Source: a virus (taxonomy: Duplodnaviria > Heunggongvirae > Uroviricota > Caudoviricetes). From it: DNA of 7,446 bases. Position 1 is the stretch's first letter. Every line of letters begins with the position of its first letter. The notes under the pieces are model-generated. The model searched no databases. It was not told the DNA's origin and worked only from the letters and a program-made list of their open reading frames with translations. Below are positions 1-7,446 of the stretch, one piece after another. The translations under genes and the position numbers were made by a program. The stretch is from IMG/VR virus record IMGVR_UViG_2675903278_000006, one strand, 5' to 3'.

Positions 1-240
1 AATCGTGTTGAGGCCAACGCCCATAATGCGGGCAGTTGCCCGGCATCCAACGCCATTCATGGCCATATCAATGATTTTCTGGTGCGTACCGGGTTGAGAA
101 GCGGTGTAAGTGAACTGCAGTTGCCATGTTTTACGGCAGTGAGAGCAGAGATAGCGCTGATGTCCGGCGGTGCTTTTGCCGTTACGCACCACCCCGTCAG
201 TAGCTGAACAGGAGGGACAGCTGATAGAAACAGAAGCCAC
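1..240 (-). CDS. insA: IS1 InsA, N-terminal 80 codons (3' end outside window); GTG start at 238-240
   Basis: Manual - strand translation from 240 down to 1 gives [80 protein letters not shown]. This matches the InsA sequence as I recall it, including the C-x2-C...C-x2-C zinc finger and the helix-turn-helix segment. It is absent from the ORF track because the frame has no stop inside the window. Confidence 0.88.
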
Positions 241-272
241 TGGAGCACCTCAAAAACACCATCATACACTAA

Positions 273-295
273 ATCAGTAAGTTGGCAGCATCACC
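273..295. repeat. IS1 terminal inverted repeat (IRL); outermost IS1 base at 295
   Basis: The + strand 273-295 is ATCAGTAAGTTGGCAGCATCACC, the reverse complement of the IS1 end GGTGATGCTGCCAACTTACTGAT. Prophage-type sequence begins at 296. Confidence 0.8.
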
Positions 296-776
296 TAAAA
301 CGTCTACTCCTGCTGTTCCAGAATAACTTCATAAAATGGGAGTATTTTTCGGTGACGAGATAATAAGAACAGTTTGCGCTATCACTCTGATGTTGAATGA
401 TGCCCTTCCGTTCTAATTTTTTCATAACCGGGTTACGGCAAGGAGAAGTGATAATAAGATTTCCTGTTTTAAGGAAATCTTTAAATACAGCGATTTCTTT
501 CTCAGATAAACGAAGCAATACTCGTTGCTCTGGTAGTAATGAATAATGCTTTTGAATATGTGCTCGCAATCTTGAGAAGGAAATGGCGACCACGAAAGAA
601 AAGGCAAAAACGATAATCTGAAAGAGCCAAGGCATTTCAGTATAAGCATTGAATGCGACAGTAAACTCTTTCGGTATCAGCCAGAGAGTGAGACCAAAAA
701 TGATAATCGTATACATAAGTCTTTCGAGTGGCTCGTTAGCAAAAAGTTTCAACAATGGAGTAAATACATCCAACAT
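291..776 (-). CDS. sieB: SieB superinfection-exclusion protein (161 codons); last codon and stop codon contributed by the IS1 terminus
   Basis: The - strand frame from ATG (rc of 774-776) reads MLDVFTPLLKLFANEPLERLMYTIIIFGLTLWLIPKEF...WLFQIIVFAFSFVVAISF..., with two hydrophobic segments typical of SieB. A weak SD-like GAGAG lies about 10 nt upstream. The stop TGA (rc of 291-293) is inside the IS1 end and the final Arg codon (294-296) spans the junction. An in-frame open extension up to GTG at 1086-1088 exists but is not favoured. Confidence 0.6.
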   Translation of the reverse strand: MLDVFTPLLKLFANEPLERLMYTIIIFGLTLWLIPKEFTVAFNAYTEMPWLFQIIVFAFSFVVAISFSRLRAHIQKHYSLLPEQRVLLRLSEKEIAVFKDFLKTGNLIITSPCRNPVMKKLERKGIIQHQSDSANCSYYLVTEKYSHFMKLFWNSRSRRFR

Positions 777-1216
777 ATCAATAACTCTCAACTGTAAGGG
801 TATTGAAATGTTAACACAAGCTCTCGCTGTAGGGGTATAGCCGAGACCACCGAAGCCCGGAGGTGGTGAAATAAAACCGGGCACAACACGAAGGCGCATT
901 TCCGATATCCATAAAGAGTCGGTCTTGTCTGTTAAATTTAAATGGTGGAGTGCGCCTCCGGTTGTAAATAACGACATTGCTGTGTGTAGTCCTGGCGGCA
1001 TCAGTTTTTTTCTTGAAGTTCGGCTGATGTCCGCCCTTTTTAAAGTGAATTTTGTGATGCGGTGAATGCGGCTAAGCGCACGTGGCACAGTTAAAAGTCA
1101 TGTTAGTCCTTATTGGTTTGGGTGGGAAAGCCGACTGTAATTGTTAACTGGTTGCAGTCACCTGGAGGCACCAGGCACCGCATCAACAAAGTTCATTTGT
1201 AAAAATGGAGATAATT
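777..1216. promoter_or_regulatory. Divergent sieB / kilR intergenic control region (promoters not resolved)
   Basis: A 440-bp gap separates the divergent sieB and kilR starts. One candidate sigma70-like pair on + is TTGGTT (1113-1118), 17 bp, TGTAAT (1136-1141). A tandem heptamer AGGCACCAGGCACC sits at 1166-1179. None of this is verifiable from sequence alone. Confidence 0.3.
994..1041 (+). terminator. Candidate intrinsic terminator upstream of kilR (GC-rich stem, large loop, T5 tract)
   Basis: GGCGGCATCAG (994-1004) pairs with CTGATGTCCGCC (1024-1035), giving an 11-bp stem with a 1-nt bulge and a 19-nt loop, followed immediately by CTTTTT (1036-1041). The large loop lowers confidence. Confidence 0.3.
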
Positions 1217-1438
1217 ATGATTGCACATCACTTCGGAACTGATGAAATACCACGTCAGTGTGTGACTCCTGGCGATTATGTTCTTCATGAAGGCCGGACA
1301 TATATTGCCTCGGCAAACAATATTAAAAAGCGAAAACTATATATTCGTAACCTGACCACAAAAACATGCATTACTGACCGCATGATTAAAGTCTTCCTCG
1401 GTCGTGATGGTTTACCTGTAAAGGCGGAGTCATGGTGA
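1217..1438 (+). CDS. kilR: KilR, prophage killing protein reported to inhibit cell division (73 aa)
   Basis: Translation [73 protein letters not shown] matches KilR as I recall it. GGAG at 1206-1209 lies 7 nt before ATG 1217. The ORF-track start at 1205 has no SD. Confidence 0.85.
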
Positions 1439-1608
1439 TGACTAAGAAAATAAAATGTGCTTACCACCTTTGCAAAAAAGACGTTGAAGAAAGCAAAGCT
1501 ATTGAAAGAATGCTTCACTTCATGCACGGGATTTTATCAAAAGACGAACCGAGAAAATATTGCAGTGAAGCTTGTGCCGAAAAAGACCAGATGGCACATG
1601 AACTTTAA
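1438..1608 (+). CDS. ydaE: YdaE, small 4-Cys zinc-ribbon-like protein (56 aa), function unknown
   Basis: Not in the ORF track. ATG 1438-1440 overlaps the kilR stop (TGATG). Translation is [56 protein letters not shown] with stop TAA at 1606-1608, and Cys pairs C-x4-C and C-x3-C. An in-frame ATG at 1432 is an alternative start. Confidence 0.75.
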   Translation: MTKKIKCAYHLCKKDVEESKAIERMLHFMHGILSKDEPRKYCSEACAEKDQMAHEL

Positions 1609-1682
1609 TTAATTGACTATTCGAAACTGAATTTATGCCAGAAATGGCAGGTATTCGCTCAACCTTAATTAAGGAGAAAAAC

Positions 1683-1958
1683 ATGATTACCAATTATGAA
1701 GCCACTGTTGTAACTACCGATGACATTGTTCACGAGGTGAATCTGGAAGGAAAGCGCATTGGCTACGTAATTAAAACAGAAAATAAAGAAACCCCATTCA
1801 CTGTGGTTGATATCGATGGTCCATCAGGCAACGTAAAAACACTTGATGAAGGTGTCAAAAAAATGTGCCTGGTGCATATCGGAAAGAATCTGCCCGCAGA
1901 AAAAAAAGCCGAATTTCTGGCAACTCTAATTGCAATGAAATTAAAAGGTGAAATCTGA
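1683..1958 (+). CDS. racC: RacC (91 aa), function unknown
   Basis: Translation MITNYEATVVTTDDIVHEVNLEGKRIGYVIKTENKETPFTVVDIDGPSGNVKTLDEGVKKMCLVHIGKNLPAEKKAEFLATLIAMKLKGEI. A strong SD AAGGAG (1671-1676) lies 6 nt before ATG 1683. The ORF-track start at 1635 lacks an SD. Confidence 0.85.
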   Translation: MITNYEATVVTTDDIVHEVNLEGKRIGYVIKTENKETPFTVVDIDGPSGNVKTLDEGVKKMCLVHIGKNLPAEKKAEFLATLIAMKLKGEI

Positions 1959-1963
1959 AAGAA

Positions 1964-1988
1964 ATAGCCTGCGTATGGCGCAGGCTAT
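1964..1988. repeat. 10-bp perfect inverted repeat (stem-loop) in the racC-recE spacer
   Basis: ATAGCCTGCG (1964-1973) and CGCAGGCTAT (1979-1988) are exact reverse complements with a 5-nt spacer TATGG. On the - strand the stem is followed by TTCTTTCAGATTT, which is terminator-like. On the + strand it is not followed by a T tract. Confidence 0.4.
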
Positions 1989-2059
1989 GAACAGTGTGTA
2001 TCCGGCAAGATCATTCACTGAACAAAACGAATTTTAATCTGAGTTGAGGTTAAAAAACA

Positions 2060-4660
2060 ATGAGCACAAAACCACTCTTCCTGTTACGGAAAGCGAAAAA
2101 ATCATCCGGTGAACCTGACGTCGTCCTGTGGGCAAGCAACGATTTTGAATCGACCTGTGCCACTCTGGACTACCTGATCGTTAAGTCAGGTAAAAAACTG
2201 AGCAGCTATTTTAAAGCTGTTGCCACGAATTTTCCTGTCGTTAATGACCTGCCCGCTGAAGGTGAGATCGATTTTACCTGGAGTGAACGCTATCAACTCA
2301 GCAAAGACTCCATGACATGGGAACTAAAACCGGGAGCAGCACCAGACAACGCTCACTATCAAGGCAATACCAACGTCAACGGCGAAGACATGACTGAGAT
2401 TGAGGAGAATATGCTACTCCCAATTTCTGGCCAGGAACTGCCCATTCGTTGGCTTGCTCAACACGGCAGCGAAAAACCGGTAACGCACGTTTCACGCGAC
2501 GGACTCCAGGCATTACACATTGCTCGGGCTGAAGAACTACCGGCTGTTACTGCCCTGGCTGTTTCCCACAAAACCAGCCTGCTCGACCCGCTGGAAATTC
2601 GCGAACTCCACAAACTGGTTCGTGACACTGACAAAGTTTTCCCTAATCCTGGTAATTCAAACCTGGGACTGATAACTGCTTTTTTCGAAGCATACCTGAA
2701 CGCTGACTACACCGATCGAGGACTGCTGACAAAAGAGTGGATGAAGGGTAATCGTGTTTCACACATCACTCGCACGGCTTCCGGTGCTAATGCTGGCGGC
2801 GGAAACCTCACCGATCGCGGCGAAGGTTTCGTACACGATCTGACGTCACTGGCGCGCGACGTAGCCACTGGCGTACTGGCCCGTTCAATGGATCTGGACA
2901 TCTATAACCTTCATCCGGCACACGCTAAACGCATTGAGGAAATTATCGCTGAAAATAAACCGCCCTTTTCTGTTTTCCGCGACAAATTCATCACCATGCC
3001 TGGCGGGCTGGATTATTCCCGCGCCATCGTGGTTGCGTCCGTAAAAGAAGCACCAATTGGGATCGAGGTCATCCCCGCGCACGTCACTGAATATCTGAAC
3101 AAAGTACTGACTGAAACCGATCATGCCAACCCTGATCCGGAAATCGTGGATATTGCCTGCGGTCGCTCCTCTGCCCCGATGCCGCAGCGAGTAACAGAAG
3201 AAGGAAAACAGGATGATGAAGAAAAACCGCAACCATCTGGAACAACGGCAGTTGAACAGGGAGAGGCTGAAACAATGGAACCGGACGCAACTGAACATCA
3301 TCAGGACACGCAGCCGCTGGATGCTCAGTCACAGGTAAATTCTGTTGATGCGAAATATCAGGAACTGCGGGCAGAACTCCATGAAGCCCGGAAAAACATT
3401 CCATCAAAAAATCCTGTCGATGCCGATAAATTGCTTGCTGCATCACGTGGTGAATTTGTTGACGGAATTAGCGACCCGAACGATCCGAAATGGGTAAAGG
3501 GGATCCAGACTCGCGATTGTGTGTACCAGAACCAGCCAGAAACGGAAAAAACCAGCCCAGATATGAATCAACCTGAGCCAGTAGTGCAACAGGAACCGGA
3601 AATAGCCTGCAATGCCTGCGGCCAGACTGGCGGGGATAACTGCCCTGACTGTGGTGCGGTGATGGGCGACGCAACATACCAGGAAACATTCGCTGAAGAG
3701 AGTCAGGTTGAAGCTAAGGAAAATGATCCGGAGGAAATGGAAGGCGCTGAACATCCGCACAATGAGAATGCTGGCAGCGATCCGCATCGCGATTGCAGTG
3801 ATGAAACTGGCGAAGTCGCAGATCCCGTAATCGTAGAAGACATAGAGCCAGGTATTTATTACGGAATTTCGAATGAGAATTACCACGCGGGTCCCGGTAT
3901 CAGTAAGTCTCAGCTCGATGACATTGCTGATACTCCGGCACTATATTTGTGGCGTAAAAATGCCCCCGTGGACACCACAAAGACAAAAACGCTCGATTTA
4001 GGAACTGCTTTCCACTGCCGGGTACTTGAACCGGAAGAATTCAGTAACCGCTTTATCGTAGCACCTGAATTTAACCGCCGTACAAACGCCGGAAAAGAAG
4101 AAGAGAAAGCGTTTCTGATGGAATGCGCAAGCACAGGAAAAACGGTTATCACTGCGGAAGAAGGCCGGAAACTTGAACTCATGTATCAAAGCGTTATGGC
4201 TTTGCCGCTGGGGCAATGGCTTGTTGAAAGCGCCGGACACGCTGAATCATCAATTTACTGGGAAGATCCTGAAACAGGAATTTTGTGTCGGTGCCGTCCG
4301 GACAAAATTATCCCTGAATTTCACTGGATCATGGACGTGAAAACTACGGCGGATATTCAACGATTCAAAACCGCTTATTACGACTACCGCTATCACGTTC
4401 AGGATGCATTCTACAGTGACGGTTATGAAGCACAGTTTGGAGTGCAGCCAACTTTCGTTTTTCTGGTTGCCAGCACAACTATTGAATGCGGACGTTATCC
4501 GGTTGAAATTTTCATGATGGGCGAAGAAGCAAAACTGGCAGGTCAACAGGAATATCACCGCAATCTGCGAACCCTGTCTGACTGCCTGAATACCGATGAA
4601 TGGCCAGCTATTAAGACATTATCACTGCCCCGCTGGGCTAAGGAATATGCAAATGACTAA
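2060..4660 (+). CDS. recE: RecE, exonuclease VIII (866 aa), 5'-3' dsDNA exonuclease with a C-terminal PD-(D/E)XK nuclease domain
   Basis: An 866-codon ORF with SD GAGG about 10 nt upstream. The C-terminal segment [18 protein letters not shown] places Asp at codon 748 (4301-4303), Asp at 759 (4334-4336) and Lys at 761 (4340-4342), matching the RecE catalytic triad as I recall it. The stop TAA (4658-4660) overlaps the recT start. Confidence 0.95.
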
Positions 4661-5462
4661 GCAACCACCAATCGCAAAAGCCGATCTGCAAAAAACTCAG
4701 GGAAACCGTGCACCAGCAGCAGTTAAAAATAGCGACGTGATTAGTTTTATTAACCAGCCATCAATGAAAGAGCAACTGGCAGCAGCTCTTCCACGCCATA
4801 TGACGGCTGAACGTATGATCCGTATCGCCACCACAGAAATTCGTAAAGTTCCGGCGTTAGGAAACTGTGACACTATGAGTTTTGTCAGTGCGATCGTACA
4901 GTGTTCACAGCTCGGACTTGAGCCAGGTAGCGCCCTCGGTCATGCATATTTACTGCCTTTTGGTAATAAAAACGAAAAGAGCGGTAAAAAGAACGTTCAG
5001 CTAATCATTGGCTATCGCGGCATGATTGATCTGGCTCGCCGTTCTGGTCAAATCGCCAGCCTGTCAGCCCGTGTTGTCCGTGAAGGTGACGAGTTTAGCT
5101 TCGAATTTGGCCTTGATGAAAAGTTAATACACCGCCCGGGAGAAAACGAAGATGCCCCGGTTACCCACGTCTATGCTGTCGCAAGACTGAAAGACGGAGG
5201 TACTCAGTTTGAAGTTATGACGCGCAAACAGATTGAGCTGGTGCGCAGCCTGAGTAAAGCTGGTAATAACGGGCCGTGGGTAACTCACTGGGAAGAAATG
5301 GCAAAGAAAACGGCTATTCGTCGCCTGTTCAAATATTTGCCCGTATCAATTGAGATCCAGCGTGCAGTATCAATGGATGAAAAGGAACCACTGACAATCG
5401 ATCCTGCAGATTCCTCTGTATTAACCGGGGAATACAGTGTAATCGATAATTCAGAGGAATAA
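4653..5462 (+). CDS. recT: RecT, single-strand annealing protein (RecT/Red-beta family, 269 aa)
   Basis: Translation from ATG 4653 is [35 protein letters not shown]...[17 protein letters not shown] (4640-4644) lies 8 nt upstream. ATGACTAA gives an 8-nt overlap with recE. The ORF-track start at 4596 is an in-frame extension inside recE. Confidence 0.95.
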
Positions 5463-5469
5463 TTCAGCC

Positions 5470-5506
5470 TGGCGGTGTAATGCACCGCCAACTTGAAATA
5501 TTTTTT
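5470..5506 (+). terminator. Weak terminator/attenuator candidate between recT and ralR
   Basis: TGGCGGTG (5470-5477) pairs with CACCGCCA (5483-5490) around a 5-nt loop. A T6 run (5501-5506) follows, but only after a 10-nt spacer, so this is atypical for an intrinsic terminator. Confidence 0.25.
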
Positions 5507-5518
5507 ATGAGAAAAATT

Positions 5519-5713
5519 ATGAGATATGACAATGTTAAACCATGTCCATTTTGTGGTTGTCCATCAGTAACGGTGAAAGCCATTTCAGGATATTACCGAG
5601 CGAAGTGTAACGGATGCGAATCCCGAACCGGTTATGGTGGAAGTGAAAAAGAAGCACTCGAAAGATGGAATAAACGAACCACTGGAAATAATAATGGAGG
5701 TGTTCATGTATAA
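5519..5713 (+). CDS. ralR: RalR (Lar) restriction-alleviation protein, also reported as a DNase toxin (64 aa)
   Basis: Translation MRYDNVKPCPFCGCPSVTVKAISGYYRAKCNGCESRTGYGGSEKEALERWNKRTTGNNNGGVHV has two C-x2-C pairs. The start was chosen to give the 64-aa protein I recall. The SD is weak, and in-frame ATGs at 5507 and 5480 are alternatives. Confidence 0.8.
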   Translation: MRYDNVKPCPFCGCPSVTVKAISGYYRAKCNGCESRTGYGGSEKEALERWNKRTTGNNNGGVHV

Positions 5714-5915
5714 AATTACCGCCACTATTGAAAAGGAAGGTGGCACTCCTACTAACTGGACAAGATATTCAAAATCTAAACTAACGAAATCAGAATGCGA
5801 AAAAATGCTCTCAGGTAAAAAAGAAGCAGGCGTTTCCAGAGAGCAGAAAGTAAAACTGATAAATTTTAATTGCGAGAAACTTCAGTCCTCGAGAATTGCA
5901 TTGTATTCAAATTAA
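5706..5915 (+). CDS. ydaC: YdaC (69 aa), function unknown
   Basis: Translation MYKITATIEKEGGTPTNWTRYSKSKLTKSECEKMLSGKKEAGVSREQKVKLINFNCEKLQSSRIALYSN. GGAGG (5696-5700) lies 5 nt before ATG 5706. The gene overlaps the ralR 3' end by 8 nt. The ORF-track start at 5634 is an extension. Confidence 0.7.
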   Translation: MYKITATIEKEGGTPTNWTRYSKSKLTKSECEKMLSGKKEAGVSREQKVKLINFNCEKLQSSRIALYSN

Positions 5916-5926
5916 AACTTCATAGC

Positions 5927-5942
5927 TGATTATTAATAATCA
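5927..5942. promoter_or_regulatory. 16-bp perfect AT-rich palindrome TGATTATTAATAATCA upstream of xisR-intR
   Basis: The sequence at 5927-5942 equals its own reverse complement. It lies in the 78-bp ydaC-xisR spacer, about 50 bp before the xisR start. Confidence 0.3.
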
Positions 5943-5993
5943 ACATCGGGCGTCAATTTCAGTCTAACATTGGCGCCTGCCAGAGGTGATGCG

Positions 5994-6209
5994 ATGGCAC
6001 AAGTAATCTTTAATGAAGAGTGGATGGTTGAATACGGCCTGATGCTTCGCACTGGTCTGGGGGCCAGACAAATTGAAGCATACCGCCAGAACTGTTGGGT
6101 GGAGGGCTTCCACTTCAAACGAGTATCTCCTTTAGGTAAGCCAGACAGCAAACGAGGGATTATCTGGTACAACTATCCAAAGATAAATCAGTTTATCAAA
6201 GACTCATGA
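5994..6209 (+). CDS. xisR: XisR (YdaQ), putative excisionase (71 aa)
   Basis: Translation [79 protein letters not shown] (5983-5988) lies 5 nt before ATG 5994. The ORF-track start at 5970 is TTG. The gene sits immediately upstream of the integrase. Confidence 0.8.
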
Positions 6210-6210
6210 T

Positions 6211-7446
6211 ATGTCTAAATTACCAACAGGTGTCGAGATTAGAGGTAGATACATTCGCATCTGGTTCATGTTTCGAGGAAAACGATGTCGGGAAACATTA
6301 AAAGGCTGGGAGATTACAAACAGTAATATTAAAAAGGCCGGAAATTTAAGAGCGCTGATAGTTCATGAAATAAACTCCGGTGAATTTGAGTATTTAAGAC
6401 GTTTTCCCCAGTCCAGCACTGGGGCAAAAATGGTGACAACGAGAGTCATAAAAACGTTCGGAGAGCTTTGTGATATCTGGACAAAAATTAAAGAGACAGA
6501 GTTAACAACAAACACAATGAAGAAAACGAAATCACAATTAAAAACACTCAGAATAATAATTTGTGAAAGTACCCCGATATCACATATTCGTTATAGCGAT
6601 ATCTTAAACTACCGGAATGAACTGCTGCATGGAGAAACGCTTTACCTGGATAATCCAAGATCCAACAAAAAAGGAAGAACCGTGCGCACAGTTGATAACT
6701 ATATCGCCCTGCTCTGTTCGCTGTTGCGTTTTGCGTATCAGTCGGGATTTATATCAACCAAACCATTTGAAGGAGTAAAAAAATTACAGCGAAACAGAAT
6801 AAAGCCTGATCCGTTATCTAAAACAGAATTCAATGCATTAATGGAAAGTGAAAAAGGACAGAGCCAGAACTTGTGGAAATTTGCCGTTTACTCAGGACTT
6901 CGTCACGGGGAACTGGCAGCTCTGGCGTGGGAGGATGTGGATCTCGAAAAGGGAATAGTGAATGTCAGAAGAAACCTGACGATACTTGATATGTTCGGTC
7001 CCCCAAAAACAAATGCCGGGATCCGAACAGTAACACTACTGCAGCCTGCTCTTGAAGCACTGAAGGAGCAATACAAACTGACCGGGCATCATCGCAAAAG
7101 CGAAATCACCTTTTATCATCGGGAGTACGGCAGAACCGAAAAGCAAAAACTGCATTTTGTTTTCATGCCCAGGATGTGTAACGGAAAACAAAAACCTTAT
7201 TACTCGGTAAGCAGTTTGGGGGCAAGGTGGAATGCAGCAGTAAAACGTGCTGGTATTCGCCGCCGTAATCCGTACCATACGCGGCATACTTTTGCCTGCT
7301 GGCTGTTGACGGCAGGAGCGAACCCGGCATTTATAGCCAGCCAAATGGGGCATGAAACTGCGCAGATGGTGTATGAAATTTACGGTATGTGGATTGATGA
7401 CATGAACGACGAACAGATAGCCATGTTGAATGCGCGGTTATCGTAG
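6211..7446 (+). CDS. intR: IntR, tyrosine recombinase / phage integrase (411 aa)
   Basis: A 411-codon ORF whose start is 1 nt after the xisR stop (TGATATG). The C-terminal region carries tyrosine-recombinase hallmarks (RHGELAALAWEDVD, then HTRHTFACWLL, then VYEIYGMW with the presumptive catalytic Tyr). The window ends at its TAG stop. Confidence 0.93.
   Translation: MSKLPTGVEIRGRYIRIWFMFRGKRCRETLKGWEITNSNIKKAGNLRALIVHEINSGEFEYLRRFPQSSTGAKMVTTRVIKTFGELCDIWTKIKETELTTNTMKKTKSQLKTLRIIICESTPISHIRYSDILNYRNELLHGETLYLDNPRSNKKGRTVRTVDNYIALLCSLLRFAYQSGFISTKPFEGVKKLQRNRIKPDPLSKTEFNALMESEKGQSQNLWKFAVYSGLRHGELAALAWEDVDLEKGIVNVRRNLTILDMFGPPKTNAGIRTVTLLQPALEALKEQYKLTGHHRKSEITFYHREYGRTEKQKLHFVFMPRMCNGKQKPYYSVSSLGARWNAAVKRAGIRRRNPYHTRHTFACWLLTAGANPAFIASQMGHETAQMVYEIYGMWIDDMNDEQIAMLNARLS

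Follow-up and report, generated by a model that had tools for sequence, protein, structure and literature searches.

Introduction

For the Rho/NusG-dependent silencing of the Rac prophage gene kil (kilR) at the terminator t_rac, Cardinale 2008 is reportedly a source beside Shashni 2014. In Escherichia coli K-12, transcription from the racR promoter reads through into kil unless Rho and NusG terminate it at t_rac inside racR, and failure of t_rac is lethal on account of kil (PMC4150792). OxyS lowers NusG and in this way leads to read-through into kilR (PMC5793797). A comparable arrangement is described for the Qin prophage, where transcription starts mainly at dicBp, a promoter upstream of ydfA that DicA represses via lambda-like operators (PMC10448788). 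Here we analyze a stretch of 7,446 bases, called the window throughout, that makes up the left arm of an E. coli cryptic prophage of the Rac type and begins within a copy of the insertion sequence IS1, and we discuss what this IS1 would mean for transcription into kilR and the downstream genes recE and recT (recET).

Results and Discussion

Comparing the window with related and described prophages, we consider it probable that its IS1, private to this strain and located where the 3' ends of ydaF and sieB converge, is a near-neutral hit that would act at most as a redundant extra block on the early-left operon. According to the K-12 annotation, MG1655 carries no IS1 between ydaF and sieB, and in this IS-free strain recET is completely repressed (PMC3945230), while K-12 kilR is silent unless Rho/NusG fail (PMC4150792, PMC5793797). 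IS1 is therefore not needed to explain a silent recET or a non-toxic kilR. As IS1 polarity depends on Rho, it would furthermore be lost in exactly the condition that exposes kilR, and it is largely redundant with t_rac because both rest on Rho. In the mechanism we propose, IS1 would add an extra, largely redundant layer over the repressor, the Rho/NusG-dependent t_rac and a leaky terminator of the small RNA (sRNA) KilS, and the KilS promoter, lying downstream of IS1, would remain unaffected. A regulatory effect would show only after derepression of the prophage with Rho still active, and the insertion itself would represent a hit in an IS1-rich lineage on AT-rich, dispensable prophage DNA.

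The original prediction, made from the letters of the window, had gone further and named IS1 plus a terminator-like hairpin at 994–1041 as a possible cause of silent recET and non-toxic kilR in this strain. IS1 would indeed sit between the immunity region and kilR, and the hairpin is a genuine terminator. However, the same arm with the same hairpin is present in MG1655 and in hundreds of IS-free strains, the silence of recET and kilR in MG1655 described above is reached without IS1, and KilS has its transcription start site (TSS) downstream of IS1. We thus gave up this explanation as very improbable.

The window corresponds to bases 1–7446 of contig CXXV01000040.1 from the draft assembly GCA_001268345.1, with identical sequence, and the contig starts with base 1 of the window; the assembly breaks inside IS1, of which 295 of 768 bases are visible. 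As had been proposed, these 295 bases (99.66 % to IS1A) directly adjoin the Rac arm, and the junction at 295/296 is exact, the IS-free relative reading ...agctaacgat/taaaacgtc... at this point. The 23-bp terminal repeat of IS1, GGTGATGCTGCCAACTTACTGAT, is the exact reverse complement of bases 273–295. On the minus strand (1–240), insA is preserved intact over its first 80 codons, beginning about 55 bp inside the left terminal inverted repeat (IRL), and the domains Zn_ribbon_InsA/HTH_Tnp_IS1 were detected on the source contig (Pfam PF03811, PF12759). The IRL side adjoins sieB and insAB points away from kilR; a simple promoter scan located a P_IRL-like IS1 promoter, CTGCCA-16-TATGAT, on the minus strand at 288–261. 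With respect to the native genes, the element lies 4 bp beyond the stop codon of ydaF on the plus strand and, in the convergent sieB, within the two final codons. A simple insertion would give, on the far side, the right terminal inverted repeat of IS1 (IRR) and then the reverse complement of GACGTTTTA...atcgttagct. None of 5,426 complete E. coli genomes contains the exact junction, nor do GTDB species representatives, plasmids or metagenome contigs, and because it is missing from all collections searched, the insertion looks recent and private to this strain.

The polarity of IS1 is classically Rho-dependent and occurs in either orientation. Rightward RNA over IS1, which is antisense to insAB, has a C content of 0.30–0.36 and a G content of 0.22–0.24 across about 350 nt and contains no open reading frame (ORF) longer than 98 aa; the native anti-sieB RNA is C-poor (C 0.17, G 0.20). 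Being untranslated and C-rich, the IS1 RNA should be subject to Rho-dependent polarity that reduces read-through, and on this compositional basis it is plausible that IS1 lowers upstream read-through into KilS-kilR-recET. If the unseen side of IS1 still consists of ydaF, ydaG and the repressor gene, transcripts from the immunity region would carry a 768-nt segment of antisense IS1 sequence, and Rho-dependent polarity would then cut read-through into KilS, kilR and recET. The predicted insulation of kilR-recET by IS1 polarity can thus be kept in part: the element would be in the path and its RNA is of the expected kind, but transcription starting at KilS, downstream of IS1, escapes it.

Several points weigh against an effective block. 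In this orientation IS1 has only weak, 5-bp intrinsic-terminator-like hairpins, and the block would therefore disappear under Rho inhibition. Lambda-like antitermination of the Rac early-left transcript would, if it occurs, override IS polarity, and ydaG and ydaF sit in the position of lambda N. Relatives sharing the IntR variant of the window carry differing repressors, and since the contig stops inside IS1, the left flank lies beyond the contig. The polarity of IS1 as such rests on classical genetics. Strong intrinsic terminators inside IS1 were considered as a separate candidate for the relevant orientation and dismissed, as all stems are of 5 bp only. Our literature search on IS1 polarity gave nothing directly usable, and the one on kilR together with IS1 nothing relevant.

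An effect of the opposite sign was considered as well, since hybrid promoters created by IS1 are known and IRL contains a good outward −35-like hexamer (TTGGCA, 282–287), so that a promoter facing outward from the IRL junction, or a hybrid one formed there, might drive transcription toward kilR. At spacings of 16–18 bp, however, the only −10 options are ctactc, tactcc and actcct, and the promoter scan found no plus-strand promoter at the junction. Transcription would still have to pass about 900 nt and the terminator of KilS before reaching kilR. The promoter was dismissed for want of a −10 element, and activation by IS1 is scarcely credible.

The hairpin at 994–1041 was correctly recognized as terminator-like in the original prediction and could be assigned to KilS. 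Its stem-loop (994–1035), followed by CUUUUU up to position 1041, folds with −19.5 kcal/mol (z −2.5; 3 of 200 shuffled sequences fold as well), and its end coincides with the 3' end of KilS in K-12. In the K-12 annotation, KilS is encoded on the kilR strand in the sieB-kilR intergenic region and maps to 945–1041 of the window, with 2 differences in 351 aligned bases. In Bar et al. 2021 (PMC8175672), northern blots verified KilS as an sRNA in the 5' untranslated region of kilR, and a mapped TSS is given for its 5' end. Both northern probes match the window (964–993 and 1012–1034), and the TSS at K-12 position 1418502 corresponds to window position 945, about 650 bp downstream of IS1; transcription from there therefore lies beyond any insulation by IS1. 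The candidate extended −10 element in front of this TSS was not picked up by the simple promoter scan.

The hairpin is hence a feature conserved in Rac arms, the same in K-12, and not specific to this strain. The Rfam model for DicF (RF00039) matches positions 981–1036 with 39.1 bits, under the gathering score of 48. Alignment with dicF of Qin (L033 2340–2450) revealed an identical terminator 3' arm, an identical U-tract and identity of the next 9 nt, while the 5' seed region differs. Judged by sequence, KilS is homologous to DicF in its 3' hairpin but has a different 5' seed, and it is not to be filed as DicF itself. We infer that the KilS terminator is leaky, because kil toxicity shows when Rho-dependent termination alone fails. 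Downstream of KilS, the kilR leader contains a structured segment resembling STnc100 (1038–1224) that includes the hairpin CACCUGGAGGCACCAGGCACC.

That the early-left transcript would begin to the left of the window and read rightward, as already proposed, is well supported by analogy: the K-12 read-through data, the homology to Qin dicBF and operator repeats all point this way. The gene order in Qin is dicA, ydfA (DUF1391), ydfB, ydfC, dicF, dicB, and YdfA is 86 % identical to YdaF. The early-left operons of Rac and Qin are syntenic in repressor, DUF1391 gene, sRNA and cell-division inhibitor; a literature search did not find this Rac/Qin early-left synteny with KilS-DicF homology stated. IS-free relatives carry the operator-like repeat TACCCATrGGTA at two places, namely in the region separating the repressor gene from the divergently oriented cro-like gene, and just beyond the repressor gene on its downstream side. 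The latter place is 480–520 bp left of the insertion point, where P_L would be expected. The operon would run from a repressor-controlled promoter through ydaG, ydaF, the inserted IS1, antisense sieB, KilS, kilR, ydaE, racC and recE to recT and onward.

Two related loci add observations on this region. Locus L008 has its repeats at 4946–5025 and 5479–5525 and a repressor-like gene of 139 aa, an immunity type unlike that of K-12 racR; in its downstream repeat pair there is also a 16-bp hairpin with a T-run, and this pair may be a combined t_imm/O_L-P_L site. In the mosaic prophage of FDAARGOS_1283 (L034 2576–2907), an annotated dicB fragment is found directly upstream of a kil gene, which illustrates module exchange between Qin and Rac at this point.

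To place the insertion among others of its kind, IS1 copies were mapped in 20 related loci (L001–L014, L027–L032), over the range −33 to 7062 in window coordinates. These relatives have at least 16 further independent IS1 sites in or at the edge of the arm, none of them in the 2.6-kb recE. The orientation of the window, with insAB opposite to kilR-recET-intR, is shared by 14 of 17 independent copies including the window's own; if the arm lies as in K-12, this majority orientation is co-directional with replication. The junctions are AT-rich, with a local GC content of 0.407 versus 0.451 for the arm, a value as low being reached in 33 of 20,000 random sets. Inside the arm, about 14 of the 16 sites in relatives are simple insertions with target duplications of 8–10 bp, and about 2 are rearranged.

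This predominance of simple insertions speaks against the view that IS1 marks a rearrangement or deletion breakpoint at which the kilR-recET arm has become physically separated from the immunity region of Rac and its promoters. Such a view draws on the contig end inside IS1, on AF3 and MSB1_4I, where IS1 lies 33 bp upstream of a ydaG-like gene and is followed by non-Rac DNA, on CX21 and TW01221, where IS1 bounds truncated Rac remnants, and on a 296-bp duplication associated with IS1 in NT1F31. Those genomes hold about 30–40 or more IS1 copies. We nevertheless consider a breakpoint unlikely and retain a near-neutral insertion as the preferred reading. The NT1F31 locus (L004 3501–4850; also W444 and LCP22S3_I2) deserves separate mention, as a single IS1 sits there between direct copies of window positions 279–574, comprising the end of ydaF and the 3' part of sieB, as expected from recombination of two nearby IS1 insertions. 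It was ruled out as the site seen in the window, since its IS1 has the opposite orientation and joins the right flank at window coordinate 279.

A further explanation is selected domestication, in which IS1 between the immunity region and kilR, or in kilR itself, would be recurrently favored by lowering the risk of kilR toxicity. In unbiased searches over the whole arm, 6 of 15 independent events among the matches listed fall into 296–1216, which makes up 13 % of the arm, and 2 more into kilR/ydaE. Two independent hits lie only 2–3 bp apart (window 1200–1210), with just 9–17 bp between them and the ATG of kilR downstream; taaaaatg(g) and aaaatggag are the duplicated targets, and their IS1 copies, 95 % identical to each other, have the orientation of the window. 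Sites upstream of kilR account for a share of 0.50, compared to 0.215 for the AT-rich positions located there. On the other hand, IS1 is also found in the recT end, rcbA, xisR and intR, its sites follow AT-rich DNA, and the strains are closely related with few events, part of the sample having been found with this very region as query. KilR can moreover be of benefit to the host (PMC5793797). Selection for insulating insertions is thus not established and AT-richness accounts for much of the pattern, so that we judge selected domestication rather unlikely. The two close hits, the hits in kilR and sieB and the 14:3 orientation are also what lies behind the more specific idea that IS1 has been recurrently fixed in the ydaF-to-kilR interval as an acquired insulator taming kilR, with the window copy as one case, which appears quite improbable to us.

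On its other side, IS1 alters sieB. The C-terminus of SieB reads ...RRFR* instead of the native ...RRFNR*, the terminal NR having become R through IS1, with the stop codon supplied by IRL. No record of an IS1-altered SieB was found, probably because the gene caller took a longer ORF (228 aa). As sieB and insA are co-oriented and the sieB stop lies inside IRL (291–295 / 240–295), sieB transcripts should run into the transposase genes, and this read-through into IS1 may influence IS1 activity.

The remaining gene content is that of a Rac-type early-left arm, with sieB on the minus strand and kilR-ydaE-racC-recE-recT-ralR-rcbA-xisR-intR on the plus strand, as assigned by NCBIfam and annotated relatives (Table 1). 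Identity to annotated Rac arms is 99.97 %. The final base of the intR stop codon is base 7446, and ttcA comes after intR on the source contig, giving the Rac arm order adjoining ttcA. Compared to the closest complete genome (S171-1), bases 296–7446 contain 2 differences only, leading to RecE I705L and IntR V322M. The antitoxin sRNA RalA is present at full length on the minus strand (5712–5890; RF02694, 225 bits), antisense to rcbA and adjoining ralR.

Table 1. Features of the window and IS1 sites of related loci. Positions are window coordinates unless a locus is named.
Feature	Position	Strand	Basis and remarks
IS1 left (insA-proximal) end	1–295	−	99.66 % to IS1A positions 295→1; relatives annotate IS1A-family transposase
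IS1 left terminal inverted repeat (IRL)	273–295	−	direct reading and junction comparison; gives sieB a new TGA stop (291–293)
Presumed target 9-mer TAAAACGTC, one copy of the expected target-site duplication	296–304		IS-free sequence is continuous here; other copy would fall past the contig end
sieB (superinfection exclusion), 161 aa	291–776	−	translation; Pfam SieB; sieB in annotated relatives
Candidate extended −10 (TGtTAAATT) of the KilS promoter	930–938	+	own sequence reading; −15 to −7 relative to the published TSS
KilS sRNA (b4833 in K-12), DicF-like, kilR 5' leader	945–1041	+	K-12 annotation mapped by alignment
Intrinsic terminator hairpin and U-tract, KilS 3' end	994–1041	+	fold; coincides with the annotated KilS 3' end
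Structured kilR leader resembling STnc100	1038–1224	+	RF02076, 35.5 bits (gathering 47), E 2.6e-6 in local search
kilR (FtsZ inhibitor), intact	1217–1438	+	NF008465, 161.5 bits; Pfam KilR
ydaE	1438–1608	+	NF041288, 86.1 bits
racC	1683–1958	+	NF007306, 206 bits; racC in annotated relatives
recE (exonuclease VIII), intact	2060–4660	+	NF007259, 1827.9 bits; private I705L, mismatch at 4172
recT, intact	4653–5462	+	NF007351, 464.5 bits
ralR, rcbA, xisR, intR		+	assigned from annotated relatives
Other IS1 sites in relatives	−33, 370, 579, 574/279, 804, 1200, 1202, 1292, 1486, 1616, 5407, 5850, 5951, 6170, 6240, 7054		
IS1 copies directly upstream of kilR in relatives	L005 4413–5180, L010 4413–5180, L014 4912–5679		

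Taken as it stands, the locus represents an ordinary IS1 allele, private to this strain, of a cryptic prophage that is already well studied, and the proposed effect duplicates documented silencing. What changes relative to the original prediction is that the hairpin is the terminator of KilS, that a start site lies downstream of IS1, and that the window begins at a contig break. If the recurrent-insertion pattern were indeed selected, it would provide a natural case in which a toxic prophage gene is insulated by IS elements, and a cryptic prophage operon would have been 'domesticated' by mobile elements that spare recET. The current pattern is, however, mostly explained by the preference of IS1 for AT-rich DNA.

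Comparison with Described Systems

Among the closest cases are the IS1 insertions in related Rac arms (H7, ECZP248, 573, H1, JX21CE35, FACU 2024, APEC_AN-25 and others), which involve the same element, the same arm, AT-rich targets and mostly the same orientation. None of them is located at 295/296, and several directly disrupt kilR, sieB, ydaE, rcbA, xisR or intR.

The classical polar IS1 insertions in gal and lac, which are relieved by rho mutations, resemble the window in that IS1 would lie between a promoter and distal genes, and the RNA crossing IS1 here is untranslated and C-rich. Unlike in gal and lac, the operon here belongs to a prophage, is repressed and has been silenced by other routes already, and its polarity would be a prediction from sequence.

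KilS of K-12 Rac (PMC8175672) is the same as window positions 945–1041 except for one missing G, so nothing of substance differs, and the hairpin first noticed in the window is its terminator. The Qin dicBF operon is like Rac in having a repressor, a DUF1391 gene, a DicF-type sRNA with the same terminator and a cell-division inhibitor. It differs in that ydfC is replaced in Rac by sieB, encoded on the opposite strand, and DicB by KilR, that KilS, unlike DicF, has its own TSS and another 5' seed, and that Qin carries no IS1 at the corresponding position.

The immunity region of the source strain may differ from the K-12 type. Compared to t_rac silencing in K-12, IS1 polarity would affect the same genes (kilR and those behind it), act on read-through in the same direction and depend on the same termination factor, whereas t_rac is native and located inside racR and IS1 is acquired and lies about 1 kb further downstream.

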